Virus record (IMG/VR): IMGVR_UViG_3300045988_101358
Coordinates: 1 to 53,847 of that record
Direction: 5' to 3' (one strand)
DNA length: 53,847 bases
DNA from: a virus
In this document: positions 620 through 53,847 of the stretch, one piece after another
Numbering within the stretch: position 1 is the first letter of the stretch
How the letters are laid out: every line of letters starts with the position of its first letter
The notes under the pieces: model-generated
Seen by the model: the letters and a program-made list of their open reading frames with translations, nothing else
Databases searched by the model: none
Told to the model about the DNA's origin: nothing
Made by a program: the position numbers and the translations under genes

Positions 620-1060
620 ATGGTTGATTTTCTTGGCAGGGGGGGGGTCTCCCACCTAATCACTAAGATGCTCGACACCGTATATCCGGTGAATAGCATT
701 TATATTTCTCTTGATTCTACCTCCCCGGCCTCTCTGTATGGAGGTACGTGGGAGCGCTTCGGTAAAGGCAAGACGCTGGTTGGCGTAGACGAAGCCGATA
801 CCGATTTCGAAACTGCCGGTCTCACCGGTGGGGAGAAGAAACATACGTTGACAAGTGCGGAGATTCCAGTCATTTCTGGAAGATTCGTACAGCAATCAAG
901 CCATGACTATGGCCTGAGTCTTGTTGTTCGTGGACTTGTTAATGGCGCGGACACGCGATATATGGGAATCGGTCCTATTGTACCTGATGGTACTCACGAC
1001 CAAGGACATAACAACATTCAGCCGTATGTGTCAGTCTATATATGGAAGAGGGTCAGCTGA
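620..1060 (+). CDS. Tail-collar-like fibre/baseplate protein, paralogue 1 (current orientation of switch 1).
   Basis: RBS aaggag. MVDFLGRGGVSHLITKMLDTVYPVNSIYISLDSTSPASLYGGTWERFGKGKTLVGV...GLTGGEKKHTLT matches the Gram-positive phage tail-collar/baseplate pattern. C-terminus is NNIQPYVSVYIWKRVS. Confidence 0.75.
   Translation: MVDFLGRGGVSHLITKMLDTVYPVNSIYISLDSTSPASLYGGTWERFGKGKTLVGVDEADTDFETAGLTGGEKKHTLTSAEIPVISGRFVQQSSHDYGLSLVVRGLVNGADTRYMGIGPIVPDGTHDQGHNNIQPYVSVYIWKRVS
639..647 (+). repeat. Poly-G tract (G9) at codons 7-10 of paralogue 1; currently in frame.
   Basis: ggc agg ggg ggg gtc, counted directly. Confidence 0.9.
818..852. repeat. Left arm of the perfect 35-bp inverted repeat of switch 1, inside the paralogue 1 coding sequence.
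   Basis: ggtctcaccggtggggagaagaaacatacgttgac equals the reverse complement of 1267-1301. Confidence 0.95.
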
Positions 1061-1266
1061 CTCGTTTCCAGATATACACACTCACGAATGGTTGAAGATT
1101 GTTATGAGGCTGCCCACCGCCTGCGGCGTTAATATGGCGTGTATCATCCCACCAAGCCTTGTTATAAGATGGTGAAATAAACCACAGAACATTATATCTG
1201 GTGTCTTGAGTTCCATCCTGATACCCAACATGTAATCCATGATTGTGTTTGGGCATTTCGGCTATA
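1053..1266 (-). other. Silent (start-less) alternative C-terminal cassette for paralogue 1.
   Basis: Minus-strand frame is open through the repeat: ...EYHGLTGGEKKHTLT|IAEMPKHNHGLHVGYQDG...GGGQPHNNLQPFVSVYIWKRVS*. No ATG or RBS of its own. Exactly in phase with the repeat (1+3n nt). Carries the canonical collar motif LT-IAEMPKHNHG. Confidence 0.8.
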
Positions 1267-1301
1267 GTCAACGTATGTTTCTTCTCCCCACCGGTGAGAC
1301 C
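1267..1301. repeat. Right arm of the 35-bp inverted repeat of switch 1.
   Basis: gtcaacgtatgtttcttctccccaccggtgagacc is the reverse complement of 818-852. Confidence 0.95.
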
Positions 1302-1341
1302 ATGATATTCCGAAAGGATCCTATTATGGTATCATTTCTCG

Positions 1342-1854
1342 ATGGGGGGTACTTCTCATCTGATTTCTAAGCTTCTCGACACTATATACCCCGTCGGAAG
1401 CATTTATATGTCCGTGAATGACACCAGTCCTGCTGCGATATTTGGCGGTACGTGGGAGCGCTTCGCCAATGGTCGAACGTTGATGGGTGTTAATTCTGCG
1501 GATAAGGATTTTAGTACCCCTGCTCACACCGGAGGTGCTAAGGAAGTTACACATGCGCATCACACTCCGTTCGGTTCAGAACAGGGTGCCAACCAATCAT
1601 GGAGCGCCATGTGGGATCATCGTGGCTCGACCAAGGTTTCCGCCTATGTGGATAACAAAGTCAAGATTAAGAACGGATATACGAACGAACTATATTTCGA
1701 AACGTATGCCGTCAAATCGCCATATCATTTCTATGTTATGGATGGCGAAACCAGTGATAGCAATGCTACTGCAACGATCGGTGCGACATATTCCACTACC
1801 ATGCCAATTCTTCCACCCTATATCACCGTTTATATTTGGCAGCGTCTCAGCTAA
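1342..1854 (+). CDS. Tail-collar-like fibre protein, paralogue 2. Its natural start (ATG 1326, good RBS) is out of frame because of a G6 tract.
   Basis: cgaaaggatcctatt-ATG(1326) encodes MVSFLDGG, then stops at 1368. The long frame starts at ATG 1342 inside the tract: MGGTSHLISKLLDTIYPVGSIYMSVNDTSPAAIFGGTWERF...YITVYIWQRLS. Homologous to paralogues 1 and 3. Confidence 0.7.
   Translation: MGGTSHLISKLLDTIYPVGSIYMSVNDTSPAAIFGGTWERFANGRTLMGVNSADKDFSTPAHTGGAKEVTHAHHTPFGSEQGANQSWSAMWDHRGSTKVSAYVDNKVKIKNGYTNELYFETYAVKSPYHFYVMDGETSDSNATATIGATYSTTMPILPPYITVYIWQRLS
1344..1349 (+). repeat. Poly-G tract (G6) at the position homologous to the G9 tract of paralogue 1. G5 or G8 would join ATG 1326 to the long frame.
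   Basis: gat gggggg tact, counted directly. Confidence 0.9.
1522..1552. repeat. Left arm of the perfect 31-bp inverted repeat of switch 2, inside the paralogue 2 coding sequence.
   Basis: gctcacaccggaggtgctaaggaagttacac equals the reverse complement of 2053-2083. Encodes AHTGGAKEVT. Confidence 0.95.
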
Positions 1855-2052
1855 CTCTTTGCCAGATATAAACAATATAGTACGGCGGGAGAATGCGAAT
1901 CGGATCGCCGCCTCCGGTATCCTTAGTCGTGGTAACGTTTACTCCGGTAGAATCTGGCGCTGAGGCTTCTGCCTTAGGGCCATATCCTGCCTGATGCCCT
2001 CCGGACCACACAGACATACTGTGAGAGTGCGGAGGAAGCTGAGAAACGGTTA
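1847..2052 (-). other. Silent (start-less) alternative C-terminal cassette for paralogue 2.
   Basis: My translation of the reverse complement, in phase with the repeat (2+3n nt): (EVT)LTVSQLPPHSHSMSVWSGGHQAGYGPKAEASAPDSTGVNVTTTKDTGGGDPIRILPPYYIVYIWQRVS*. It has no internal stop and no start codon, so it is absent from the ORF track. Confidence 0.8.
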
Positions 2053-2102: not shown

Positions 2103-2564
2103 ATGGTAAATTTTCTCGACAATGCCGGAACTCAACATTTCATCACAAAACTGCTCGATACGGTATATCCGGTTAGTAGCATTTATATCACCACTAGCGA
2201 TACCTCTCCTGCGAGTTTCCTTGGAGGCTCCTGGGAGAGGTATGCTAAAGGTCGTACATTAATTGGTGTGAATGAAAAGGACAAGGATTTTATAGATGCG
2301 ACTCATTCCGGTGGTAGCAAGACTCAGATCGTAGATGGTGGGGCCTTCAGGGCTCATATTGCCTTTAATTCTGCTGGACGTTTCTGGTTCCAACAGGATG
2401 AATCGACAGAGCCCTGGAATAGCACATCATCTGTGGATAATGTTAGATATGACTGGAACACTGGGACATGGGGAACTAAAACAGGCATCCGCATATCCAA
2501 CAAACAGACCCTTAATAATCTCCCTCCATTCCAAACAGTCTATATTTGGCGAAGGATCGCGTAA
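2103..2564 (+). CDS. Tail-collar-like fibre protein, paralogue 3. No poly-G tract and no inverted cassette.
   Basis: RBS gaagga. MVNFLDNAGTQHFITKLLDTVYPVSSIYITTSDTSPASFLGGSWERY...PPFQTVYIWRRIA. Confidence 0.75.
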   Translation: MVNFLDNAGTQHFITKLLDTVYPVSSIYITTSDTSPASFLGGSWERYAKGRTLIGVNEKDKDFIDATHSGGSKTQIVDGGAFRAHIAFNSAGRFWFQQDESTEPWNSTSSVDNVRYDWNTGTWGTKTGIRISNKQTLNNLPPFQTVYIWRRIA

Positions 2565-3366: not shown

Positions 3367-3392
3367 CGCGATATTTACAACTTCCTTAATGG
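3367..3392 (+). promoter_or_regulatory. Copy 1 of the conserved 26-nt intergenic motif CGCGAR-AWWWACAA-N5-TTAATGA.
   Basis: cgcgat atttacaa cttcc ttaatgg. Confidence 0.5.
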
Positions 3393-6251: not shown

Positions 6252-6626
6252 ATGTCTGAATATTTCATTGCGCTCGCATTTATCTGCGGCATTATATTGT
6301 GCACGTATTTAACCATGACGTCAGTACTTGGATACAGCAGGCATCCAAGGACCATACAACTTTTCCCTCGATGGACTTGTTACGAAGTCGATCGAGATAA
6401 TTTTAGACTTCTGTTCAAGGATTGGATGGTTGCTGATCATTTTCAGTCTGAATGGAACGAAGCATATGAATTACATCATCGAATCGAATTACCAGAATTC
6501 GAAGGAATTATATTCACCAGTAGAATAAATTCCCCATATACTATTCCAAATGTGGAATATCCGTTTGCTGTAGATCTTGGATCGTTTACTACAGACCTTG
6601 GATCGAACGAACTGTTCACTTTTTGA
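6252..6626 (+). CDS. Membrane-anchored hypothetical protein (124 aa).
   Basis: ctttgaaaggatgcaaac-ATG. FIALAFICGIILCTYLTMTSVL. Confidence 0.65.
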   Translation: MSEYFIALAFICGIILCTYLTMTSVLGYSRHPRTIQLFPRWTCYEVDRDNFRLLFKDWMVADHFQSEWNEAYELHHRIELPEFEGIIFTSRINSPYTIPNVEYPFAVDLGSFTTDLGSNELFTF

Positions 6627-18657: not shown

Positions 18658-19266
18658 ATGGCAATCAAAAAGAAGCTCGATCGTGTTAAGCTCGACTCCT
18701 GCGAGATCATCTTCCGCAACTTCTCCGGAACCGGTGGCAAGTTCAATCCCGAAGGCAACCGCAACTTCTGTGTTATTCTTTCCGAAGAAGAAGGCAATGC
18801 ATTGCAGGCTGCTGGATGGAATGTCAAGCGTCGCCCTCCGCGTGAGGATGGTGAACAGCTTCCTCCATACCTCAAGGTGAACATCGGCAAGGACAGCTTC
18901 GAGAAGGGCCGTACCAAGATCTATCGTATGGACGTGGATACTCAGGGCAAGCCTCGTCGTGACGCCAATGGAGATATTGTCAAGGCCGTTCTGGATCCAC
19001 AGACGGTTGGCGGTCTGGATTCGGCTTATATTGTGGACGCTCAGGTCATCCTGTCGCCATATTTCTACGACATTCAGGGTCGCAGTGGCATTTCGGCCTA
19101 TGTGGACGAGATGACCGTCGTGGTACAGATGGACCCCTGGACTGCCAAGTATGAGGACTTCAATTCGGAGAACCCTGACTCGGCCATGAACACTACGACC
19201 TTCGAGGTTGTCGGTGCAAAACAGTTCAATGGTAAGCTTGCCGGAACGGACGATCCTCAGTTCTAA
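18658..19266 (+). CDS. Possible phage ssDNA-binding protein.
   Basis: ctgaaaggaatattatc-ATG. IIFRNFSGTGGKFNPEGNRNFCVILSEEEGNALQAAGWNVK resembles phage SSB-like proteins, and the gene sits in the replication module. Weak call. Confidence 0.35.
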   Translation: MAIKKKLDRVKLDSCEIIFRNFSGTGGKFNPEGNRNFCVILSEEEGNALQAAGWNVKRRPPREDGEQLPPYLKVNIGKDSFEKGRTKIYRMDVDTQGKPRRDANGDIVKAVLDPQTVGGLDSAYIVDAQVILSPYFYDIQGRSGISAYVDEMTVVVQMDPWTAKYEDFNSENPDSAMNTTTFEVVGAKQFNGKLAGTDDPQF

Positions 19267-23432: not shown

Positions 23433-23729
23433 ATGAAACGAGAAGGAAAGTTTCAGAATGAACTTATCACAGACATCAAGCGACTGTTGCCTGGTTGTAT
23501 CGTGATGAAGAACGACCCTGATTATATTCAGGGCATCCCAGACTTGACCGTGCTCTACAAGAAACGTTGGGCTTGCTTGGAAGTCAAGCGAACCAACAAT
23601 TCTCCCCATCGTCCGAATCAGGATTATTACGTTCAGCTCATGAACTCCATGAGCTTTGCTGCATTCGTATGTCCTGAGAACAAAGACGAAGTTCTATCTG
23701 CACTATTCAAGGAACTGGAAAGACTATGA
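23433..23729 (+). CDS. VRR-NUC-type nuclease.
   Basis: EGKFQNELITDIKRL...GIPDLTVLYKKRWACLEVKR...NQDYYVQLMNS fits the VRR-NUC D...E-x-K...Q pattern. Confidence 0.6.
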   Translation: MKREGKFQNELITDIKRLLPGCIVMKNDPDYIQGIPDLTVLYKKRWACLEVKRTNNSPHRPNQDYYVQLMNSMSFAAFVCPENKDEVLSALFKELERL

Positions 23730-24283
23730 AATTCAATGATCATCATCAACTTGATGGTATGCATTCATTTTTGAGTGCATCGAAGTGGCATTGGGTAAAT
23801 TACGCACCTGAGCATCTCGATGATATTTATCGCTCATCGATGGCTGCACAGCTTGGAACCGAACTTCATGCTTTGGCTTCAGACCTTATCAAGCATGGCG
23901 TGAAGCTTCCGCGCAATAAGAAGACACTCAACCAGTTTGTTAATGATGCTATTGGTTGGAAGATGGCTTCCGAGCAAGTTCTGTTTTATTCTATGAATGC
24001 TTTTGGCACAGCTGATGCTATTTCCTTCGATGGCAAGCTGCTTCGCATTCATGATCTTAAGACTGGAGTCATTCCGGCTCATATGGAGCAGCTTGAAATC
24101 TATGCTTCATATTTTTGCCTTGAGTATGACGTGAAGCCTGAAGACATCGACATGATTCTGAGGATCTATCAGAATGATGACATTGTCGAGGTAGAACCCG
24201 AACCTCAGGATATTCGTGACATCATGGGTAAGATCGTACTCTTTGACAAACGTATTGAACAACTCAAGCAGGAAGGAGTCTGA
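23726..24283 (+). CDS. PD-(D/E)XK (RecB/Cas4-like) nuclease.
   Basis: GTELHAL..., FGTADAISFDGKLLRIHDLKTG, QLEIYASY. Confidence 0.55.
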   Translation: MKFNDHHQLDGMHSFLSASKWHWVNYAPEHLDDIYRSSMAAQLGTELHALASDLIKHGVKLPRNKKTLNQFVNDAIGWKMASEQVLFYSMNAFGTADAISFDGKLLRIHDLKTGVIPAHMEQLEIYASYFCLEYDVKPEDIDMILRIYQNDDIVEVEPEPQDIRDIMGKIVLFDKRIEQLKQEGV

Positions 24284-24284
24284 C

Positions 24285-27182
24285 ATGTTCGTGGTTGACG
24301 AATCTGAACTTGAACATTCCGGAACTCCTCATGCTGGAAGTGTTCCGCATTCCGGTCGATACAAGTGGGGCTCTGGAGAAAATCCAGGTCAGCACGACAA
24401 TTCGTTCAGAACTCAATATAGGAATTTCAAGAAGCAGGGTTTTACTGAAGCCGAAATTGTCAAAGCAATGGGGCTTAAGTCTACTGCTGAACTTCGAGTT
24501 CTAAACAAGGTCAATCGTGAACAGGAAGGCTTCGAGCAGACCCAGCGAGCTAGGAAGCTGATTGAAGAGAACGGATATTCTCTATCCGCAGCAGCTCGTA
24601 AGGTTGGCTTGAGTGAGTCGACGCTTCGCAGTCGTCTTAAGAGTTCTTTCGAAGAGCGAGCTTCTCGTACTTCGAAGGCTGCATCATATTTGCAGGAGCA
24701 AGTCGACAAAGGCGCTCTTGTGGATGTCGGTGAAGGCTCTTGGACTTATCTTGGAGTCTCCAAGGCTGTGCTCGATGCAGCTGTCCGTAAGCTGAAGGAT
24801 CAAGGATATTCTGTTGAGACTATCGAAGTCCCTCAGGTTTCCGATCCCGATCATATGACTAAGATCAAAGTTCTGGCGCCGAAAGGTATGGCTTGGAAGG
24901 ATATTCAGGCTAACAAGAACAAGATTCAAGTGATCGACCACAGCTTTGATGAATCTCCGCTTATTTCCAAATCAGACAAAACGCTCCCTGAGAGCGTCAG
25001 TTCTAAGAGAGTCAAGGTTGTCTTTGATGAGGAAGGTGGAACTCAGCGAGATGGAAATATTCTTGTTCGTCCTGGCGTCGAAGATGTAGCTCTTGGTGGT
25101 AATCACTACGCTCAGGTTCGAATCGCCGTGGATGGGACACACTATCTTAAGGGTACTGCCATGTATGGTGACCCTAAGGATTTCCCTCCTGGTGTCGATC
25201 TCATTTTCAATTCCAACAAACCAAGATCTGTTGGCAAGCTTGGTGCTTTGAAAGAGCTGAAGACCGACAAAGATGGTAAAATTGATCAGAACCTTCCTTT
25301 TGGTGCTGTGACTCGTAAGCTTACCTACACTGACAAGAATGGTCAGGAACATATTTCCAAGATCAATCTTGTTCGTGAGGAAGGCGAATGGGATACCTGG
25401 TCTAGGAATCTTCCTTCTCAGATGCTGTCTAAGCAATCTCGTGAGCTGGCTCATCGCCAGTTGGGCATTGCTTATGAACGTTCTTTCTCTGAGTATCAGG
25501 ATATTCTCAAGCTGAGTAATCCTGCCGTCAAGCGAAAGCTTCTTCAGGAATTTTCTGATGAGTGTGATCGTAAGGCTGTGGATCTCAAAGCTGCTGCGAT
25601 GCCTCGTCAGTCTACCCATGTTATTCTCCCGATTCCTTCTTTGAAGGACAACGAAATATATGCTCCTTCATTCCGTAATGGCGAACGAGTTGCATTGATT
25701 CGATTCCCTCATGGTGGAACGTTTGAGATTCCAGAGCTTATTGTAAATAACAATAACCGTGAAGCTCGACAGCGTTTGGGGAATGGCAAGGGCATGTCTC
25801 TTGATGCGGTTGGTATTAACCATAAGGTTGCTGCTCGACTTTCTGGAGCTGACTTTGATGGCGATACTGTTCTGGTTATTCCAAACAATCGTGGAGAAAT
25901 TAAGAGTACTAATCCTCTTAAGGGTCTTGAAGACTTTGATCCTTCTTCAGCTTATCCAGCATATCCTGGAATGAAGAAAGTCAAGACTGATAAGGCTTTT
26001 AATAAGCAGGCTGAAATGGGAAAGGTCAGTAATCTTATTACTGACATGACCATTAAGGGTGCTACTCCTGATAAGATCGCTCGTGCTGTTCGTCATTCTA
26101 TGGTTGTCATCGATGCTGAAAAGCATAATTTGGATTGGCGTAAATCCTATGAGGATAATGGTATTGCTGATCTTAAACGAGAGTATCAGGGCACTGCTCC
26201 TAATGGCCAGCTTCGTGGCGCATCGACTCTTATTTCTCGAGCATCTGCTACGCAATATGTGAATGCTCGAGAAAAAAATCCTGCAAGATATGGAGGTTCC
26301 ATAGATCCCGATACTGGAAAAATATGGTATAGGGAAACTGGAAAGGGCTCTACGGAAGTTGCTTATCGTGACCCTACCAAACCAGGAAAGAGGCCAGGCT
26401 CTCCAGGTAGGAAGACCTGGGCTTCAGAGCGCAAGTTCCATGCTCTTGTAAAGAAGGGTGAAATTCCGGAATCTACAAAAATTATAGATACCAGGTTTAA
26501 GCCCCGTCTTCAGGAGTCTAAGAAGATGCTTGAAGTAGATGATGCTTTTGAGTTGTCTTCTGGTACCAACATGGAATGGGAGTATGCTACCTATGCTAAT
26601 AGGATGAAGGCCCTAGCTAATGATGCTAGAAAGGCTTTGCTAGCCACTCCTAATGCGCCCTATAGTCCATCCGCCCATAAGGCCTACGCTGAAGAGGTGG
26701 CTTCTCTCAAGGCTAAGCTTAACACAGCCTTGAAGAACAAGCCTCTTGAACGCAAGGCTCAGCTCATTGCCGGTAACATAGTACGCAGCCAGCGCATCTC
26801 TAACCCTGACCTAGACGAAGACGAGTTGAAGAAGCTGCGCACCACAGCGCTTGAGACAGCTCGTGCTAGGACAGGAGCACTCAATGCTGAAGGCAAGCGT
26901 GTAACATTCACTCCACGTGAATGGGAAGCTGTGCAAGCTGGTGCCATCTCCCATACCATGCTCACTGAGCTGCTGAAGAACGCAGACAGTGGTGTGGTAA
27001 AGGAGCTTGCTACACCACATAGTGACAAGGGTAAGATGAACAATGTCTTGATTGCTCGTGCTCGAGCCTTGCTCAATGCAGGCAACATGACACAGAATGA
27101 AGTGGCTGATCTACTTGGCGTTAGTGTTAACACCTTGAAGGCCAACCTCAACCCCAAGTCGAAGTTGAATCAAGAGAGGTGA
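24285..27182 (+). CDS. 965-aa HTH-flanked protein with a beta-prime-like double-psi beta-barrel catalytic motif (candidate YonO/RdRP-like single-subunit RNA polymerase).
   Basis: ggaaggagtctgac-ATG. ERVALIRFPHGGTFEIPELIV...VGINHKVAARLSGADFDGDTVLVIPNN parallels beta-prime R-x-P-x-x-H ... NADFDGDQM. HTH-like segments at the N-terminus (GYSLSAAARKVGLSESTLRSRL) and C-terminus (MTQNEVADLLGVSVNTLKANL). Confidence 0.45.
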   Translation: MFVVDESELEHSGTPHAGSVPHSGRYKWGSGENPGQHDNSFRTQYRNFKKQGFTEAEIVKAMGLKSTAELRVLNKVNREQEGFEQTQRARKLIEENGYSLSAAARKVGLSESTLRSRLKSSFEERASRTSKAASYLQEQVDKGALVDVGEGSWTYLGVSKAVLDAAVRKLKDQGYSVETIEVPQVSDPDHMTKIKVLAPKGMAWKDIQANKNKIQVIDHSFDESPLISKSDKTLPESVSSKRVKVVFDEEGGTQRDGNILVRPGVEDVALGGNHYAQVRIAVDGTHYLKGTAMYGDPKDFPPGVDLIFNSNKPRSVGKLGALKELKTDKDGKIDQNLPFGAVTRKLTYTDKNGQEHISKINLVREEGEWDTWSRNLPSQMLSKQSRELAHRQLGIAYERSFSEYQDILKLSNPAVKRKLLQEFSDECDRKAVDLKAAAMPRQSTHVILPIPSLKDNEIYAPSFRNGERVALIRFPHGGTFEIPELIVNNNNREARQRLGNGKGMSLDAVGINHKVAARLSGADFDGDTVLVIPNNRGEIKSTNPLKGLEDFDPSSAYPAYPGMKKVKTDKAFNKQAEMGKVSNLITDMTIKGATPDKIARAVRHSMVVIDAEKHNLDWRKSYEDNGIADLKREYQGTAPNGQLRGASTLISRASATQYVNAREKNPARYGGSIDPDTGKIWYRETGKGSTEVAYRDPTKPGKRPGSPGRKTWASERKFHALVKKGEIPESTKIIDTRFKPRLQESKKMLEVDDAFELSSGTNMEWEYATYANRMKALANDARKALLATPNAPYSPSAHKAYAEEVASLKAKLNTALKNKPLERKAQLIAGNIVRSQRISNPDLDEDELKKLRTTALETARARTGALNAEGKRVTFTPREWEAVQAGAISHTMLTELLKNADSGVVKELATPHSDKGKMNNVLIARARALLNAGNMTQNEVADLLGVSVNTLKANLNPKSKLNQER

Positions 27183-30194: not shown

Positions 30195-30580
30195 GTTCCG
30201 AAACTGACGACACTCTTATTCAGAACAGCATTCTCAACACCGAGAAGAAGATGCTTGGGATTGATCTCGATGATGACGCATTCGATGACGAGCTTCTTGT
30301 TCACATCAATGGTATTGTTATGACGCTGCATCAGCTCGGCGTCGGTGTTGATCAACACTTTAATGTGGATGACAATACTACTACATGGGATGAACTGCTT
30401 GATAATCGCGATGATCTTCAAGCAGTGAAGACTTACATTTATCTTAAGCTTCGCCAACAGTTTGACCCGCCAACTAATTCATTTGTTCTCACTTCCATTG
30501 AGAAGCAGATCACAGAATTGGAATGGCGTTTAAATGTTCAGGCCGAAGCGACTCATCCTGTGTCACCTATTGGAGGTTGA
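30191..30580 (+). CDS. Possible gp6-like head-tail connector protein.
   Basis: LGIDLDDDAFDDELLVHINGIVMTLHQ... resembles connector/adaptor N-termini. Weak call. Confidence 0.3.
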   Translation: MSSETDDTLIQNSILNTEKKMLGIDLDDDAFDDELLVHINGIVMTLHQLGVGVDQHFNVDDNTTTWDELLDNRDDLQAVKTYIYLKLRQQFDPPTNSFVLTSIEKQITELEWRLNVQAEATHPVSPIGG

Positions 30581-30581
30581 T

Positions 30582-31712
30582 ATGAGAGTCGCTTTCGATG
30601 AACAACCTTCGGATCAGGATCTTCAGCACTTTGGCGTTAAGGGTATGAAGTGGGGCGTTCGTAACTACACCGACAAGAACGGTCGACTCACTGCCGAAGG
30701 ACGAGAGCACTATGCCGAGAAGTCATTAACCAAACATCAGCAGAAGATCTCTGCGAAATGGCAGGCGCGTGGTCTGAGTAAGGCGGATGCTGATGTTCAG
30801 GCTAAGCGACGTGCAGAGGTCGAACGAATGTTAGCCATCACTGGTGGTGTCACGGCCGCAGCTGCCACTGCTTATATTGTTGGTAAGCATCTTGATCGTA
30901 CCACAGACAAACTTCTTGGTAAGGGGTCTGAGGTTGGTCGTGTGGCTACTAATAATAGCAAGAAGATGGAAGACGCCTTCTATGTGTTCGACAATGCTAA
31001 AGATCGTGCCAAGTATGTTGGAATGTATGGCAAAGCTCTTAAGGATCAGGGCGGTACTTCCATATTTGAGAAGTCGCTTAAAGTTGTTGGTGACGTGAAG
31101 GTCGCTTCTCCTGAAACTGGTAGAAAGGTCTTTGCGAATCTTATTTCTCGCGATCCTGAGGTTATGGCATATGCCAAACAGACTTTTCGACTTAGAAGTG
31201 AGTTCGACCCTCTTCCAAATCGTCAAGCGCTTTGTTCGAAAGCTCTTGATGACATCAATCATGGCAAATGGACAAAATCCGCTTATGAGGCTTTCAATAT
31301 CGGGTTGGTAGATCATAGTCCGATCGGTAATAAAGTCTCATCTAAATTCTATAGCCAATTGAAGAAAGACGGCTTCTCTGCTATTCGTGATGTCAACGAT
31401 CATTCGTTCTCCGGTTACAATTCGAAGAATCCTTTGATCATATTCGATAAGGATAAGGTTGATGTTCAATCTGCTAAAGCCTTGTCGAAGGATGTCATTG
31501 ACAAAACCAACGATATGGCCGTTAATGATCTTCTTATGTCTGACGTAACTAAAAGTGTTGCCAAAATCGGTGTGGCGGCGGTTGGAGCCACTGTTGCCCG
31601 TCGGGTTACCAGTCAGATTGCCGAAGATAATTATATTAAGAATTATCTTCTGGATCATCCGAATACCAAGCTTAACCGTGATGGCATTCTTAAGACTCGT
31701 GGGCTAGAATAG
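30582..31712 (+). CDS. Protein with the N-terminal FDE..DLQHFGVKGMKWG motif (family member 1).
   Basis: MRVAFDEQPSDQDLQHFGVKGMKWGVRNY. Confidence 0.65.
   Translation: MRVAFDEQPSDQDLQHFGVKGMKWGVRNYTDKNGRLTAEGREHYAEKSLTKHQQKISAKWQARGLSKADADVQAKRRAEVERMLAITGGVTAAAATAYIVGKHLDRTTDKLLGKGSEVGRVATNNSKKMEDAFYVFDNAKDRAKYVGMYGKALKDQGGTSIFEKSLKVVGDVKVASPETGRKVFANLISRDPEVMAYAKQTFRLRSEFDPLPNRQALCSKALDDINHGKWTKSAYEAFNIGLVDHSPIGNKVSSKFYSQLKKDGFSAIRDVNDHSFSGYNSKNPLIIFDKDKVDVQSAKALSKDVIDKTNDMAVNDLLMSDVTKSVAKIGVAAVGATVARRVTSQIAEDNYIKNYLLDHPNTKLNRDGILKTRGLE
30625..30661 (+). repeat. Perfect 37-nt direct repeat, copy 1 (copy 2 at 34194-34230).
   Basis: agcactttggcgttaagggtatgaagtggggcgttcg. Confidence 0.9.
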
Positions 31713-31722
31713 GAGACGAATA

Positions 31723-33468
31723 ATGGCGTTATCGAACACCGCAGTACCGAAGTATTATGGTGAATTCCGTGACGCCGTTATTCACGGAGAGATTCCAGTC
31801 TGCAAAGAGATTGCGATGGAGATGAATCGCATTGATTCCCTCATTGCAAATCCTGGTATCTACTATGATGAGTCTGCTGTCGAGGGATGGATCAAGTTCT
31901 GCGAGAAAGAACTTACTCTGACCGATGGTACCGATCTTCACCTTCTTGATTATTTCAAGGTTTGGGGTGAAGAGGTCTTTGGATGGTATTATTACGTTGA
32001 ACGCAGCGTATATGTGCCAAACGAAGATAATCATGGCGGCCATTACGAGCGTAAGAGAATTCTCAAGCGCTTGACCAACAAGCAGTATCTTATCGTGAGT
32101 CGAGGCGCAGCTAAGTCTATGTATGACGCCTGTATTCAGGCCTATTTCATGACCGTGGACACCTCGACGACCCATCAGATCTGTACTGCTCCTACTATGA
32201 AGCAGGCGGAAGAGACCATGTCTCCTCTGCGTACCGCTATTACTCGAGCTAAGGGTCCTCTCTTCCAATTTCTCACCGAAGGCTCTCTTCAGAATACTAC
32301 AGGGTCCAGAGCAAATCGCATGAAGTTGGCTTCTACTAAGAGAGGTATTGAGAACTTTCTTACAGGAAGCCTTCTTGAGGTTCGCCCTATGTCTATCGAT
32401 AAACTTCAGGGCCTTCGCCCTCGAATTTCAACAGTAGATGAATGGCTTTCCGGTGATATTCGTGAAGACGTCGTTGGCGCTATCGAACAGGGTGCTTCGA
32501 AGCTTGATGATTATCTTATCATAGCATCTTCTTCCGAGGGTACTGTTCGAAATAGTGCTGGCGATACCATCAAGATGGAGCTTATGGATATTCTGAAGGG
32601 CGACTATGTCAACCCTCACGTGTCTATATGGTATTATCGTCTTGATGATGTTCATGAAGTTAACGATCCGAGCACCTGGCTTAAAGCCAATCCTGGTCTT
32701 GGAAAGATTGTTACCTACGAGACATATCAGCTTGATGTAGAGCGAGCCGAGAAAGCTCCAGCTACTCGAAATGATATTCTAGCCAAACGATTCGGAATTC
32801 CTATGGAAGGTTATACATACTTCTTTACCTATGAAGAGACTCTTCCTCATAGGCGTCAAGATTTCTGGAATCTTCCATGCTCAATGGGTGCCGATCTTTC
32901 GCAAGGCGATGATTTCTGTGCTTTCACCTTCTTGTTCCCTCTTAAGAATGGAACCTTTGGCGTAAAGACTAGATGCTATATTTCTTCCAGAACAATGGCA
33001 AACCTTCCGTTGGCTATGCATCAGAAGTATGAAGACTTTCTTAACGAAGCCAGCCTTCAGGTTCTTGATGGTACAGTTTTGGATATGATGGATGTCTATG
33101 ATGACTTGGATAAGTATATTATAGACAGCAAATATGACGTTCGATGTTTTGGATTCGATCCATATAATGCTCGTGACTTTGTTTCTCGATGGGAAACGGA
33201 GAATGGCCCATATGGTATCGAAAAAGTGATTCAGGGAGCTAAGACGGAATCGGTTCCTCTTGGTGAACTGAAGCATCTATCCGAAGATCGCTCGCTTATA
33301 TTTGATCAACAATTATTCACATTCACTATGGGCAATGCTATTACTCTTGAAGATACCAATGGCAATCGAAAACTTCTGAAAAAGCGTTACGATCAGAAGA
33401 TCGATGCCGTAGCGGCTCTTCTTGATGCATGGGTTGCCTATAAACTCAACAGGGAGGCATTCGACTAA
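31723..33468 (+). CDS. terL: Terminase large subunit.
   Basis: 581 aa. MALSNTAVPKYYGEFRDAVIHGEIPVCKE...YLIVSRGAAKSMY (ATPase Walker A-like) and a C-terminal nuclease region, typical of the Terminase_1 family. Sits upstream of the portal. Confidence 0.8.
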   Translation: MALSNTAVPKYYGEFRDAVIHGEIPVCKEIAMEMNRIDSLIANPGIYYDESAVEGWIKFCEKELTLTDGTDLHLLDYFKVWGEEVFGWYYYVERSVYVPNEDNHGGHYERKRILKRLTNKQYLIVSRGAAKSMYDACIQAYFMTVDTSTTHQICTAPTMKQAEETMSPLRTAITRAKGPLFQFLTEGSLQNTTGSRANRMKLASTKRGIENFLTGSLLEVRPMSIDKLQGLRPRISTVDEWLSGDIREDVVGAIEQGASKLDDYLIIASSSEGTVRNSAGDTIKMELMDILKGDYVNPHVSIWYYRLDDVHEVNDPSTWLKANPGLGKIVTYETYQLDVERAEKAPATRNDILAKRFGIPMEGYTYFFTYEETLPHRRQDFWNLPCSMGADLSQGDDFCAFTFLFPLKNGTFGVKTRCYISSRTMANLPLAMHQKYEDFLNEASLQVLDGTVLDMMDVYDDLDKYIIDSKYDVRCFGFDPYNARDFVSRWETENGPYGIEKVIQGAKTESVPLGELKHLSEDRSLIFDQQLFTFTMGNAITLEDTNGNRKLLKKRYDQKIDAVAALLDAWVAYKLNREAFD

Positions 33469-33953
33469 TGCGTGTAACATTTGATGAGGAACCAACCCCA
33501 GAAGATCTCGAACATTATGGTGTTCTTGGTATGAAATGGGGCCATCGCCGTGTGCAAGTAGCTCAGGCCAAGGCTGCTAAAGCTAAGTCTAAGCTGAGTG
33601 GCACCGAAAGAGGAACCAAGGCTTATTCTAAAGCCAATGCTAAGTATCAGAAGGCTACTGCTAAGGCTCGCACTCGCAAAGCTGTCTATGAAGGCGTTTA
33701 CAGCAATGCTAAAGCTCGTAAGCGTGTTGAGAGGCAGTCTATGGGTAAGACCCTTGCTCAGGCATTCGTCATGGGCGACTTTGGTGCTATGAAGTATAAC
33801 GAGGCTCGTGCTGCTGGTATTAATAGGGGCAGGAGTTTCGTGAATGGAATGGCCGGTGACGTCGCTAATCAGATGCTCTTTAGTCTTCCTAACCAGTTAG
33901 GCGGTGTCGCTAAAGCTAGCAAGGTTCGAAAGTCTTTGAAGTCTAAGGCGTGA
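33468..33953 (+). CDS. Basic protein with the N-terminal FDE..DLEHYGVLGMKWG motif (family member 2).
   Basis: MRVTFDEEPTPEDLEHYGVLGMKWGHRRV. Confidence 0.65.
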   Translation: MRVTFDEEPTPEDLEHYGVLGMKWGHRRVQVAQAKAAKAKSKLSGTERGTKAYSKANAKYQKATAKARTRKAVYEGVYSNAKARKRVERQSMGKTLAQAFVMGDFGAMKYNEARAAGINRGRSFVNGMAGDVANQMLFSLPNQLGGVAKASKVRKSLKSKA

Positions 33954-33958
33954 TTGTC

Positions 33959-34636
33959 ATGTCCAATAAGAAGAATTTCGCCTATACTCCGGATGATATT
34001 CCTTCTCATTGGAAGCTTGATATTTCGGATCGAGAGCATGTCATCATGGCCAAGACAGCTCTGGAAAAGGGCTTTCGTGGCCAAAAAGTCCGTATTCCGG
34101 ATGAAGATATGCCGGCTGTAATTAACAAAGTTAATGCCGCAGCTCGTAAATACAAGCTTTCTCCAATCGGGGAGGAATCGAAAGACACCGTCGAGCACTT
34201 TGGCGTTAAGGGTATGAAGTGGGGCGTTCGAAAGAAGCGTCGGTCTGCTGACTTCAATGAAGCGCAACGTCTTCGTAAGAAGAATCCAGATACTCTTTCA
34301 AACAAAGAACTTCAGACTCTTAATACTCGTATGAATCTCGAAAATCAATACCGTACCAATCGAATTAACAATCAGAGTCAAGCTCGCAAATATGCGAAAC
34401 AGATTTTAGTTGGCACAGCAGTCAGTACAGCTACAGCTATAATGGCTAAAAACTATCCGGAACTAATTTCATCCGGGAAGTCTCTGGCTAGTAAAATTCT
34501 TAATACTCCTCAGGCTAAAGAACTTGTTGTTGACCCTATAGTTGGGGTAAAGAACAACGCCGGTCGTAAAGTAGTTAAGGGCGCCGTTGATGCTGCTAAT
34601 GCTGCTGTGAGCCTTAAACGAAAGTTTAAGAAATGA
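33959..34636 (+). CDS. Protein with an internal VEHFGVKGMKWGVRKKR motif (family member 3).
   Basis: Start at ATG 33959 (GTG 33950 is an alternative). The motif lies about 80 residues in, followed by LSNKELQTLNTRMNLENQY. Confidence 0.6.
   Translation: MSNKKNFAYTPDDIPSHWKLDISDREHVIMAKTALEKGFRGQKVRIPDEDMPAVINKVNAAARKYKLSPIGEESKDTVEHFGVKGMKWGVRKKRRSADFNEAQRLRKKNPDTLSNKELQTLNTRMNLENQYRTNRINNQSQARKYAKQILVGTAVSTATAIMAKNYPELISSGKSLASKILNTPQAKELVVDPIVGVKNNAGRKVVKGAVDAANAAVSLKRKFKK
34194..34230 (+). repeat. Perfect 37-nt direct repeat, copy 2.
   Basis: Identical to 30625-30661. Confidence 0.9.
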
Positions 34637-36516: not shown

Positions 36517-36537
36517 TTAAAGAAAGGATAAGTGGAC

Positions 36538-38496
36538 ATGAAGTTTGACTTTAGCGGTTACGCCACTAAGAACAATATTCGTTGTTCTGATGGTCGGACT
36601 ATCATGCATGATGCTTTCAAGGAAATGGATGGTAAGACCGTTCCCCTTGTTTGGCAGCATATGCATGACAATCCAGAGAACGTTCTTGGTCATGCACTTC
36701 TGGAGAATCGCGATAATGGTGTGTACTGCTACTGCTCGCTGAATAACACTCCGGCTGGTGAGAATGTCAAGTCGTTGCTCGAGCATGGTGATATCGACGC
36801 TTTGTCCATTTACGCAAACCAGTTGGTCCAGAATCAGGGAAGAGTTATGCATGGAGTGATCCGTGAAGTATCCGTTGTCCTGGCTGGTGCCAATCCTGGC
36901 GCTCTCATTGATAATGTTGCCATTCAGCATTCCGATGGTGCTATTGACGAGCTTGCTGATGAAGCGGTCATCACTTCTGATGACTACATCTGTCATGCTT
37001 CTGGTTCTGTGGAACCGGATGATTCTGAGGAAGATGATACCGAAGAATCGGGTTCTGATGATAAGACCGTCAAGGATGTGTGGGACACCTTCTCTGAAGA
37101 TGAGAAGAACGTTGCATACTACATGATCGGCACTGCTGCTCAGTCTGGCAATGGAAATTCTGAAGTCGCACAGTCTGCGTTTGCGCATGCTGATGAAGAA
37201 GATCTTCCTAGTGACGATTCTTCTGATGAGGAAGGCCCTACTGTAAAAGACATCTGGGATTCCATGTCGGAAGAGAAGAAAAATGTTGTCTACTACCTGA
37301 TTGGTCAGGCTCTGAAGAATGCAGGTAAGTCGGGCAATAGCGAGTCCGAAGACTCCGCTAGTAATAATCAAAATGGTGGTAAGTCCACCGCTTCAAATGA
37401 AGGAGATAGTTCTATGAAGCACAATGTGTTCGAGAACGATGGAGCTTCGGATTCCATGATCGGATTGGATCATGAGACCGCGCTCACCCTGCTGCATGAT
37501 GCTATGTCTGATACGCAGCTTCGTGGTTCGTTCAAGGATTCCGTCATCGCCCATGCGGATTCTTACGGCATCAAGGATATCGAAATCCTCTTCCCGGATG
37601 CCAAGTCCGTCACCCAGACCCCGGACTTCGTCAAGCGTCGTACCGACTGGGTCGATACCTTTGTGAACGGCCTGCATAAGTCCCCGTTCTCTCGTATCAA
37701 GTCAATGGCTGCGGACATCACTGCCGATGAGGCTCGTGCGAAGGGTTACATCAAGGGCAAGCAGAAGATCGAAGAGATCTTCGGTGTGTCCAAGCGTGTA
37801 ACCCTCCCGCAGACCATTTACAAGAAGCAGAAGCTCGATCGCGATGACATCATTGACATCACTGACTTTGATGTCGTGGTCTGGCTGAAGGCCGAGATGC
37901 AGCTGATGCTGCGTGAGGAAGTCGGTCGTGCTATTCTGATCGGCGATGGCCGTACTGTTGGCGCCGAGGGTAAGATCAACGAGGAGAACATCCGCCCGAT
38001 CTGGACCGACGATGAGTTCTACACCATCCATAAGGATGTCCAGGCGTTCGATCCGAATACCCTGACCACCGAGCAGGGTTCTGCCCTGATCAAGACCATC
38101 ATCTCGTCCATGGATGAATACGAGGGCAACGGAACTCCGACGCTCTTCGCTTCTCCGGCCACGATTACCGCTCTGCTTCTTCTTGAGGACAAGATCGGTC
38201 GTCGTCTGTTCAACAACCTAAGCGACCTTGCGTCCGCTCTGGGTGTTGCCGCTGTGGTGAAGGTCCCGGTGCTCAAGGGCGCTCATCGTAATGTAAGTGG
38301 CGCTGAGAAGGATCTGGTCGGCATCATCGTCAACCCGGCGGATTACTTCGTCGGTGCTGACAAGGGTGGCGAGCTCAACTTCTTCGACGACTTTGATATC
38401 GACTTCAACCAGTACAGGTACCTGTACGAGACTCGTATGTCTGGTGCTCTGGTGCATCCGAAGACGGCCATCGCGCTCGAAGCCCCAAAAGCGTGA
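36538..38496 (+). CDS. Prohead protease, acidic scaffold-like linker and HK97-type major capsid protein, all fused in one ORF.
   Basis: N-terminus: FSGYATKNNIRCSDGRTIMHDAF...VPLVWQHMHD...REVSVVLAGANPGA (HK97-family prohead protease). Acidic linker with the duplicated motif TVKD(V/I)WD(T/S)(F/M)SE(D/E)(E/K)KNV(A/V)YY(M/L)IG. C-terminal about 330 aa is capsid-like. Confidence 0.7.
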   Translation: MKFDFSGYATKNNIRCSDGRTIMHDAFKEMDGKTVPLVWQHMHDNPENVLGHALLENRDNGVYCYCSLNNTPAGENVKSLLEHGDIDALSIYANQLVQNQGRVMHGVIREVSVVLAGANPGALIDNVAIQHSDGAIDELADEAVITSDDYICHASGSVEPDDSEEDDTEESGSDDKTVKDVWDTFSEDEKNVAYYMIGTAAQSGNGNSEVAQSAFAHADEEDLPSDDSSDEEGPTVKDIWDSMSEEKKNVVYYLIGQALKNAGKSGNSESEDSASNNQNGGKSTASNEGDSSMKHNVFENDGASDSMIGLDHETALTLLHDAMSDTQLRGSFKDSVIAHADSYGIKDIEILFPDAKSVTQTPDFVKRRTDWVDTFVNGLHKSPFSRIKSMAADITADEARAKGYIKGKQKIEEIFGVSKRVTLPQTIYKKQKLDRDDIIDITDFDVVVWLKAEMQLMLREEVGRAILIGDGRTVGAEGKINEENIRPIWTDDEFYTIHKDVQAFDPNTLTTEQGSALIKTIISSMDEYEGNGTPTLFASPATITALLLLEDKIGRRLFNNLSDLASALGVAAVVKVPVLKGAHRNVSGAEKDLVGIIVNPADYFVGADKGGELNFFDDFDIDFNQYRYLYETRMSGALVHPKTAIALEAPKA

Positions 38497-53360: not shown

Positions 53361-53847
53361 ATGCGCATTGTTGATAAAGATAACAAAGAACTCGATCCGA
53401 ATAAACTGGATCTTCGTAAGGGGCATCTGGTGGATGACAAGATCTTCGTCAAGCACCATGATGCTCAGGAGAAGGTCGAGGAAGTCTCTCATTATGAGAC
53501 CGTTCGTTTCTATTCGAATGGCGGCATGGATGTCGAGAAGGTCATTGACACCCCTGGCCAGGAGGCTAAGGATGCCTATGACGAATATGAGGATGTCCAG
53601 CGCTACATCGAGTACACTCAGAGCGAGTTGGACACTCAGGACAAGAGCACTGCCACTGCCGTCGTGAATGGTAACATGAACGATCAGATCATGACGGCTA
53701 TGCCCTACCTGATTGCTCAAATGTCTACGATGATCGATGATAATACTGCCGGACAGTTCCCTGGTCTGTTCGAGACATTCGAAGAAGGCAATAAATATCC
53801 GGCCAAGACCATCGTTCGCTACAAGACCGGTCTGTATCGTGTTATTC
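53361..53847 (+). CDS. 5' portion of a wrap-around tail-fibre/receptor-binding-like gene. It continues at 1-401 once the overlap is collapsed (248 aa total).
   Basis: ATG 53361 follows tgaaaggagcgcgca. The frame (MRIVDKDNKELDPNKLDLRKGH...) stays open to the window end and is in phase with ORF 15-401. Confidence 0.7.
   Translation, partial: MRIVDKDNKELDPNKLDLRKGHLVDDKIFVKHHDAQEKVEEVSHYETVRFYSNGGMDVEKVIDTPGQEAKDAYDEYEDVQRYIEYTQSELDTQDKSTATAVVNGNMNDQIMTAMPYLIAQMSTMIDDNTAGQFPGLFETFEEGNKYPAKTIVRYKTGLYRVI
53707..53847. repeat. Second copy of the 141-bp terminal overlap (equals 1-141).
   Basis: Identical to bases 1-141. Confidence 0.95.

Follow-up and report, generated by a model that had tools for sequence, protein, structure and literature searches.

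A DNA-Inversion Switch in a Tail Gene of an Apparently Virulent Siphovirus with No Recognised Recombinase

Introduction

Host-range switching by DNA inversion has hitherto been treated as a trait of temperate phages that possess a dedicated invertase. In the G segment of Mu (inverted by Gin), the C segment of P1 (Cin) and the Min system of p15B, a constant N-terminal part of a host-recognition tail protein is joined by inversion to alternative C-terminal parts, through repeats that lie within the coding sequence (34 bp long in Mu), and both orientations are found in populations. The same arrangement is seen at positions 818-1301 of the viral record IMGVR_UViG_3300045988_101358 in IMG/VR, all 53,847 nucleotides of which were analyzed (hereafter, the window). 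Here two inverted repeats enclose alternative ends for gene 1 (620-1060), a tail gene. An earlier note, made by inspection of the window, had likened the locus to Mu G and P1 C. The logic of that analogy stands (a constant N-terminal part, alternative C-terminal parts between inverted repeats), while membership in the family does not, as the scans described below found no invertase of the Gin/Cin type. In Mu, P1 and p15B a gene for a serine invertase lies next to the segment, together with an enhancer, and inversion depends on Fis, whereas no Resolvase domain was found here. Their segments span 3-4 kb and include chaperone genes (U/U'), in contrast to the 414-500 bp and two half-domain cassettes of the present segments. 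Finally, those phages are temperate, whereas this one looks virulent and has several independent tandem switches with unrelated repeats.

The Rin shufflon of Bifidobacterium prophages, which has a flanking tyrosine recombinase, 11-bp asymmetric rix sites and five cassettes (PMC6109161), resembles the locus in that C-termini of a receptor-binding protein are exchanged by inversion in a Gram-positive (actinobacterial) siphovirus. Rin and the R64 Rci shufflon differ from it in that no Phage_integrase domain was found in the window and each switch has two cassettes and perfect inverted repeats of 31-35 bp. The nearest precedent is a segment of about 500 bp, comprising a small gene and the 3' end of its neighbor, that is inverted between the related Bifidobacterium prophages 689b-1 and Bb423phi2 with no flanking recombinase (PMC6109161). 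The site there, CAGGGTTA, has only 8 bp, however; both phages are temperate, and no function is known for the small gene. Surveys of gene-altering inversions count tail-fibre and tail-collar proteins among the targets (PMC9881135; bioRxiv 10.1101/2023.03.11.532203). Such inversions and intragenic invertons share with the present locus a repeat-flanked segment that overlaps coding sequence and an asymmetry between gene and pseudogene, but the surveys concern bacterial chromosomes and prophages, where neighboring recombinases are enriched, whereas this is a free phage genome in which none was found. In Anabaena cyanophages, repeats of 400-700 nt surround isomers of about 30 kb, both present in populations, and recombination independent of a recombinase has been discussed (bioRxiv 10.64898/2026.02.14.705889); unlike here, no coding sequence is swapped.

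The switch works like Mu G, P1 C, p15B Min and Rin but belongs to none of them, since it lacks a recognizable recombinase and their chaperone genes, and inspection of the arms by eye revealed no site architecture of their kind. A search of the literature found no description of this switch family, of tandem independent switches or of co-evolution of arms in a recombinase-free phage. What is presented here is the familiar logic in the complete genome of a siphovirus that looks virulent and has its relatives among actinobacterial phages, with several independent switches and no recognizable recombinase. As no invertase is detectable, the phage may change its host specificity by an unusual route, and how the segment flips is the most interesting part of the finding.

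Results and Discussion

Architecture of the Switch

The window contains two exact copies of the 35-mer GGTCTCACCGGTGGGGAGAAGAAACATACGTTGAC and no more, one at 818-852 on the plus strand (the left arm, IR1L) and the other, its exact reverse complement, at 1267-1301 on the minus strand (the right arm, IR1R), which agrees with the perfect 35-bp inverted repeats claimed in the earlier note. In 100 shuffles of the sequence that preserved dinucleotides, no such match is expected, even with up to three mismatches allowed. Extended to 50 nt, the two copies match at 88% of positions. Gene 1, an open reading frame (ORF) of 146 codons on the plus strand, is preceded at a distance of 7 nt by a strong ribosome-binding site (AAGGAG), and its product is exactly that of protein P0007 from the database search described below. 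The left arm lies within it, as was claimed, beginning on a codon and encoding GLTGGEKKHTL plus two nucleotides of a Thr codon.

Between the arms are two convergent coding segments that meet stop to stop, as had been described. Cassette A (853-1060, plus strand; SAEIPVISGRF...YVSVYIWKRVS-stop) is the one presently expressed, and cassette B (1053-1266, minus strand; IAEMPKHNHG...FVSVYIWKRVS-stop) is presently silent, though its product matches positions 59-139 of the Pfam model Gp10_C (E=2.2e-9). Their stop codons overlap within the palindrome TCAGCTGA (1053-1060). The equal phase of the two cassettes relative to the repeat can be read directly from the sequence, and so a flip would produce an in-frame protein of 148 amino acids. 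The 414-bp segment contains just these two cassettes and no gene for a tail-fibre assembly chaperone. The claim that the minus-strand segment has neither start codon nor ribosome-binding site needs qualification on the first count, given an incidental TTG at 1271-1269 inside the repeat. A scan of the minus strand at the locus found no convincing promoter (6 sites against 4.8 expected), and scans for promoters and terminators did not rise above background. The convergent, conserved 3' ends of the two cassettes also form a 54-nt imperfect palindrome (74%; 1007-1106), centered on the overlapping stops. It could fold in mRNA, and a similar one exists in every relative.

Both Orientations in Natural Populations

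The protein predicted from the flipped segment was sought among 5.8 billion proteins, and 16 loci of the window's lineage were fetched and compared piece by piece (segment-by-segment BLAST). In seven contigs (L006, L007, L008 and L010-L013) the 414-bp segment is inverted precisely between the arms, with collinear flanks, leaving cassette A silent. Cassette B is expressed in L008, L010-L013 and in the proteins P0001 and P0122. P0001 is a full-length flipped protein of 148 amino acids, 93% identical to the predicted chimera, and its cluster consists of 15 distinct members, several of them on contigs of about 53.8 kb. P0002, also flipped, is 86% identical and lies on a 53-kb contig, while P0003 joins the N-terminal half of gene 1 to a third type of cassette, C. 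Counting distinct proteins by cluster gives 27 in state A, 15 in state B and 6 in state C, mostly on contigs of 53.7-53.9 kb. The prediction that flipping 853-1266 swaps the last 70 or so residues in frame is thus borne out by both inverted contigs and full-length flipped proteins from nature.

Cassette A differs at 1 of 200 positions between L006, where it is silent, and L018, where it is expressed, whereas genomes of the same orientation differ at up to 17 of 200. A second switch (1522-2083, described below) is flipped between L017 and L018, with no difference over 500 nt of the segment or over 1522 nt of adjacent DNA. All four combinations of states of the two switches were found. For both switches, orientation is interspersed among alleles, which requires that flips have occurred repeatedly. 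In one contig, L104 (691 bp, assembled with k=141), the segment is bordered at either end by the right-hand flank, and the two junctions, right flank to C and right flank to A, represent opposite orientations from a single sample.

Assembly artefact as a source of the inverted contigs was considered and ruled out. With repeats of 31-35 bp, assemblers that used k=141 and contigs free of Ns, the junctions must be supported by reads, and the assemblies, made independently, agree; the same junctions were recovered in independent studies. Three contigs (L001, L007 and L105) break off where the left arm of the second switch meets its segment (L007 one nucleotide short of that point), as expected at a branch in an assembly graph.

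In all 20 genomes examined, including those of a lineage with only 52%-69% amino acid identity, the silent cassettes can be read without interruption as far as their natural stop; the earlier note had named a broken or out-of-frame minus-strand cassette in close relatives as a refutation. The ratio of nonsynonymous to synonymous polymorphism in the cassettes is about 1.4, from small counts. Both observations bear on whether selection maintains the switch. The locus accordingly shows what is seen in gene-altering programmed inversions: the two orientations coexist (across samples and, in L104, within one), the breakpoints lie in the repeats, and both frames are intact in all 20. Judged by comparison of assembled sequences, 818-1301 is a working DNA-inversion switch, with both orientations present in nature and flips that are both recurrent and recent.

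The repeat together with cassette B proved uninformative as a search pattern for orientation, since an unflipped locus contains it too, on its minus strand. A scan of a collection of metagenome contigs for IR1 returned nothing, and scans of a collection of viral contigs for the arms of the first and second switches returned one IMG/VR relative only. The region 400-2600 found no DNA match by blastn in the cultured phages of INPHARED, and a search with cassette B for a cultured phage of the same architecture gave, among the matches listed, single-copy genes only.

The Protein Encoded by Gene 1

The product of gene 1 matches the Pfam family Gp10_C (PF21939) over model positions 1-139 (E=4.8e-27; 96 bits against a cut-off of 27), and the silent cassettes of both switches also pass the cut-off, with 38.8 and 31.4 bits, over the C-terminal half of the model. 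The gene falls in PHROG families for tail, baseplate and tail fibre. The family profile matches the C-terminal domain of T4 gp10 (PDB 2fkk, E=2.7e-17), and homology to T4 gp10 is clear over the whole 146-residue protein, but gp10 is a baseplate wedge protein of 602 amino acids that does not vary by inversion, whereas here the domain stands alone. The label "tail-collar fibre gene" given in the earlier note must consequently be replaced: no state or cassette matched the Phage Tail Collar family (PF07484) at E<=0.1, and the protein is a small tail or baseplate protein of the gp10_C type rather than a long fibre. Resemblance to Phage Tail Collar is limited to the motif LTxxEMPxHxH, which the earlier note called the canonical collar motif; its EMPxHxH lies in the silent cassette, as stated, and that cassette also matches the C-terminal half of Gp10_C.

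The breakpoint falls within a single domain, at T-G-G-x-K, the most conserved motif of the family, and a swap would therefore exchange the variable middle and closing beta-strand of that domain. Modelling of both C-termini, which had been suggested as a check, gave poor AlphaFold monomers for both states (predicted local distance difference test scores of 56 and 62), whose top Foldseek matches are T4 gp10. The tail module runs in the order tape measure, Dit, a Tal-like Sipho_Gp37 protein, two small proteins, three gp10_C genes and a holin of the Dp-1 type, and some records of homologues in Microbacterium phages are annotated as minor tail protein. From these annotations and this position, I infer that the gene 1 protein determines host range, and the exchanged half of the domain is probably the one that faces the receptor.

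Further Switches and Poly-G Tracts

Gene 1 is the first of three tandem genes (620-1060, 1326/1342-1854 and 2103-2564) that all match PF21939, with E-values from 1e-20 to 5e-27. Gene 2 (1326-1854, plus strand; Gp10_C, E=1.9e-23) contains the second switch. Its perfect 31-bp arms lie at 1522-1552 (IR2L, plus strand, encoding AHTGGAKEVT) and 2053-2083 (IR2R, minus strand), both found by the repeat search, and enclose a 500-bp segment with cassette 2A (1553-1854, plus strand), expressed in the window, and cassette 2B (1847-2052, minus strand; LTVSQLPPHSHS...YIVYIWQRVS-stop), silent in the window and matching Gp10_C at positions 56-139 (E=4.3e-7). The segment is inverted and 2B expressed in L006, L014 and L017. 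Gene 3 (2103-2564, plus strand; Gp10_C, E=1.4e-20) has no switch in the window. In a sister lineage, L101-L103, it contains a third, with 20-bp arms (IR3) in a GRTLVGV motif, 782 nt apart, that exchanges C-terminal parts of 116 and 158 amino acids (7629-8452 in L101, 7521-8344 in L102 and 4412-5235 in L103); its state in L102 is opposite to that in L101 and L103. Gene 1 of this lineage is only 52%-69% identical to that of the window at the amino acid level, yet switches 1 and 2 have been kept, and opposite states of switch 1 are found among the three contigs.

Genes 1 and 2 also have tracts of G near their starts, recognized by comparison across loci. In gene 1 the tract occupies codons 7-9 (639-647, plus strand) and is in frame as G9, the length found in 16 loci. 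L017-L020 have G8, a frameshift, and both G10 and G8 occur in the diverged lineage. In gene 2 the tract (1344-1349, plus strand), likewise at codons 7-9, is G6 in the window, owing to which the ATG at 1326, the one linked to a ribosome-binding site, is out of frame and the open frame runs from the ATG at 1342. The length in frame with ATG 1326 is G8, present in 13 loci, while L016 shares the G6 of the window, L015 has G7, and L008 and L101 have G9. Such variation in length among nearly identical genomes may represent slipped-strand ON/OFF variation on top of the inversions. Since the switches flip independently and the tracts vary, a population of the phage holds many combinations of tail tips.

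Other metagenomes hold derivatives of the locus (among P0005, P0030, P0031, P0010, P0017 and P0012). In some, the N-terminal half of gene 1 joins the leader of gene 2 across the repeat, through three different micro-homology junctions, and others are mosaics of genes 1 and 3; the locus is also a hot spot of deletion and recombination. Just one of 80 loci kept from a scan of genomes has an array of cassettes: L049, in a Candidatus Saccharibacteria metagenome-assembled genome (JAFWCN010000006, 6306-9763). Here a tail protein of 704 amino acids ends in a gp10_C-type domain, and beyond it lie five or more C-terminal cassettes, some in one orientation and some in the other, each headed by a ACYGTTACATTGAC-like repeat of 12-17 bp at a homologous KTVTLT site, with no recombinase within 8 kb of the array. 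Bifidobacterium phage BitterVaud1 (L009), the nearest cultured relative by gene 1, has only a vestige of 24 amino acids of a convergent cassette (6443-6514) after its gp10_C gene.

Genome Completeness and the Search for a Recombinase

The window begins and ends with the same 141 nt (1-141 and 53707-53847), an exact direct repeat produced by assembler overlap, and the assembly therefore closes into a circle of about 53,706 bp. All genes lie on one strand and there is no tRNA. The large terminase, portal and a protein of 988 amino acids have their closest counterparts in phages of Arthrobacter, Gordonia, Streptomyces and Microbacterium, which are presumably lytic. The genome of the window looks virulent. 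No close prophage was found among 185,579 species genomes; the 534 distant relatives (<=47% identity) give no host assignment. The endolysin combines GH25, CW_7 and LysM domains, and the host would be Gram-positive and probably actinobacterial. Many nearly complete copies of the phage exist in metagenome assemblies of the European Nucleotide Archive.

Pfam and PHROG scans covered plus-strand ORFs of at least about 100 codons (and three shorter ones) and the ten largest frames of the minus strand; the tape-measure ORF was not scanned directly, but its relatives carry only the TMP_3 annotation. None of the ORFs and frames scanned has a serine recombinase (Resolvase), large-serine (Recombinase), tyrosine (Phage_integrase), DDE or IS110 domain. 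With the genome complete, the switch is one that has no recognizable cognate invertase gene. A recombinase hidden within the 988-residue protein was considered, on account of traces of HTH_7 and of PHROGs labeled "DNA invertase," and rejected: these are isolated helix-turn-helix matches in a protein that matches phrog_4291 from end to end. Crossover sites of the serine invertases are 26 bp long, with two inverted half-sites around a 2-bp core; inspection of the arms by eye found no convincing dyad of this hix/gix type, only the incidental palindrome CACCGGTG.

The arms themselves have an informative history. IR1 exists as three alleles, of 35, 29 and 28-29 bp (the 35-mer of the window's lineage, GGCAAAACCGGTGGAGAGAAGACGCATAA in L004 and TGGCAAAACCGGGGGAGAGAAGGTTCAT(A) in L101-L103), that are 4-7 positions apart, the differences including synonymous ones and one whole codon. 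The left arm is perfectly conserved in 13 of 15 relatives within the window's lineage. The two arms are identical within every genome save L006 and L007, where one base differs, in IR1L only. Between L101 and L102 there is a single-base change in IR2 and another in IR3, and either change is found in both arms of its repeat. No convincing core sequence is common to IR1, IR2 and IR3, and IR3, which also flips, lies in a different motif. Because sequence varies between switches and between lineages while the arms match within a genome, the arms evolve in concert. A specific invertase predicts conservation of its site and provides no reason for the arms to be identical beyond the crossover, whereas homologous recombination with gene conversion predicts the pattern seen.

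How the Segment May Flip

Two plus-strand genes of the window encode candidate trans-acting factors: a single-strand annealing protein (18658-19266; phrog_4787, E=7.5e-36; Pfam PF24083, E=2.5e-34) and an exonuclease of the PD-(D/E)XK or Cas4-like type (23726-24283; phrog_3953, E=1.3e-74; Pfam DUF2800). An annealing protein with a Cas4/RecB-like exonuclease makes up a Red-like recombination pair, and homologies some 35-50 nt long are enough for pairs of this kind. Both proteins may take part in the inversion. The most likely mechanism, though I rate it no better than about even, is homology-dependent recombination between the arms and not the act of a sequence-specific invertase. The conserved GLTGGEKKHTLT stretch is where the constant N-terminal half of the protein meets one of the two convergent cassettes, and recombination between the 35-bp arms flips the 414-bp segment, exchanging the variable half of the domain. 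In this view the annealing protein and exonuclease of the phage would promote the event, or else host RecA or template switching during replication would. Since each arm is the reverse complement of the other, the two strands of the locus have identical arms but oppositely oriented middles, and the opposite strand could act like a donor in recombineering, with homology arms of 20-35 nt; by annealing at the replication fork, it would at once invert the segment and homogenize the arms. Crossing-over dependent on RecA and template switching would be variants of the same idea. A broader proposal, which I hold tentatively and with somewhat less confidence, is that a virulent phage hedges its host range by an array of switches that requires no invertase: its own annealing protein and exonuclease would "self-recombineer" by way of perfect repeats of 20-35 nt in conserved coding motifs, flipping half-domain cassettes and homogenizing arms, and together with poly-G slippage would generate many variants of the tail tip from about 2 kb of DNA.

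Several considerations weigh against this account. The proposed enzymes are candidates, and the receptor-binding role is predicted from genome position and family annotation. Among characterized phase-variable inversions, those whose repeats are shorter than 50 bp nearly all depend on site-specific recombinases, and 20-35 bp is about as short as arms can be for recombination of the RecA or Red type. A recombinase that needs identical crossover regions could also demand identical arms. The repeats in the L049 array are only 12-17 bp, more like those of a classical shufflon, and the single-base mismatch in L006 and L007 has not been homogenized.

A site-specific invertase encoded by the host and acting in trans, as the Mpi invertase of Bacteroides acts on distant loci, is an alternative that I consider less likely but plausible. 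It would explain why a complete phage genome has no recognized recombinase. IR1 and IR2 occur at the same coding motif and share ACCGG.GG...AAG, and the array of L049 has short, shufflon-like repeats with no local recombinase. A trans-acting invertase has moreover been proposed for the inverted tail locus without a recombinase in Bifidobacterium prophages (PMC6109161). Against it, three unrelated repeats all flip; from one lineage to another, IR1 differs at as many as 7 of its 29 positions, with both arms altered together, and still looks functional; and a virulent phage would have to rely on the host's enzyme within a short infection. The same objections regarding specificity apply to an invertase of the phage's own from an unrecognized family, for example one of the DUF6353 paralogues or phrog_4079, phrog_4695 or phrog_4678. 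About half of the ORFs in the early region have no assigned function and so leave room for such an enzyme, but nothing at the level of Pfam or PHROG resembles a known recombinase fold, and I consider this very improbable.

One might dispense with switching altogether and suppose that the inversions are old, stable polymorphisms, or artefacts of assembly, spread by recombination in the flanks among co-infecting phages. All the evidence is, after all, comparative and drawn from assemblies, and the locus is a hot spot of recombination with mosaics and fusions (P0010, P0017 and P0005). This, too, seems quite improbable. Segments in opposite orientation are identical or one nucleotide apart, whereas alleles of the same orientation differ more; each junction must be present in reads, given repeats shorter than k and contigs free of Ns, and independent studies agree; and even diverged lineages have kept the silent cassettes and the perfect arms.

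If short homology and the recombination proteins of the phage do drive the inversion, then any phage in which part of a receptor-binding gene becomes duplicated and inverted could acquire programmed variation, and searches for invertons that demand a nearby recombinase would miss such switches. Phages of this kind would be intrinsically polyvalent populations, which would matter for prediction of hosts from metagenomes, for models of arms races and for the choice and engineering of therapeutic phages.

Other Features of the Genome

Five copies of CGCGAAATTTACAA-N5-TTAATG lie upstream of early genes (plus strand, at 3367, 3888, 5044, 5177 and 8860), where none would be expected by chance, and are candidates for phage-specific promoters. 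The protein of 988 amino acids mentioned above (24216-27182), whose end-to-end match phrog_4291 is annotated "RNA-dependent RNA polymerase," has helix-turn-helix motifs at both ends, is conserved among phages of the four genera named above and may be an RNA polymerase of the phage. In the head region, three proteins (30534-31712, 33468-33953 and 33950-34636) each begin with the DUF7211 motif HFGVKGMKWG, and a single ORF (36532-38496) unites a prohead protease domain (Peptidase_S78) with a major capsid domain.

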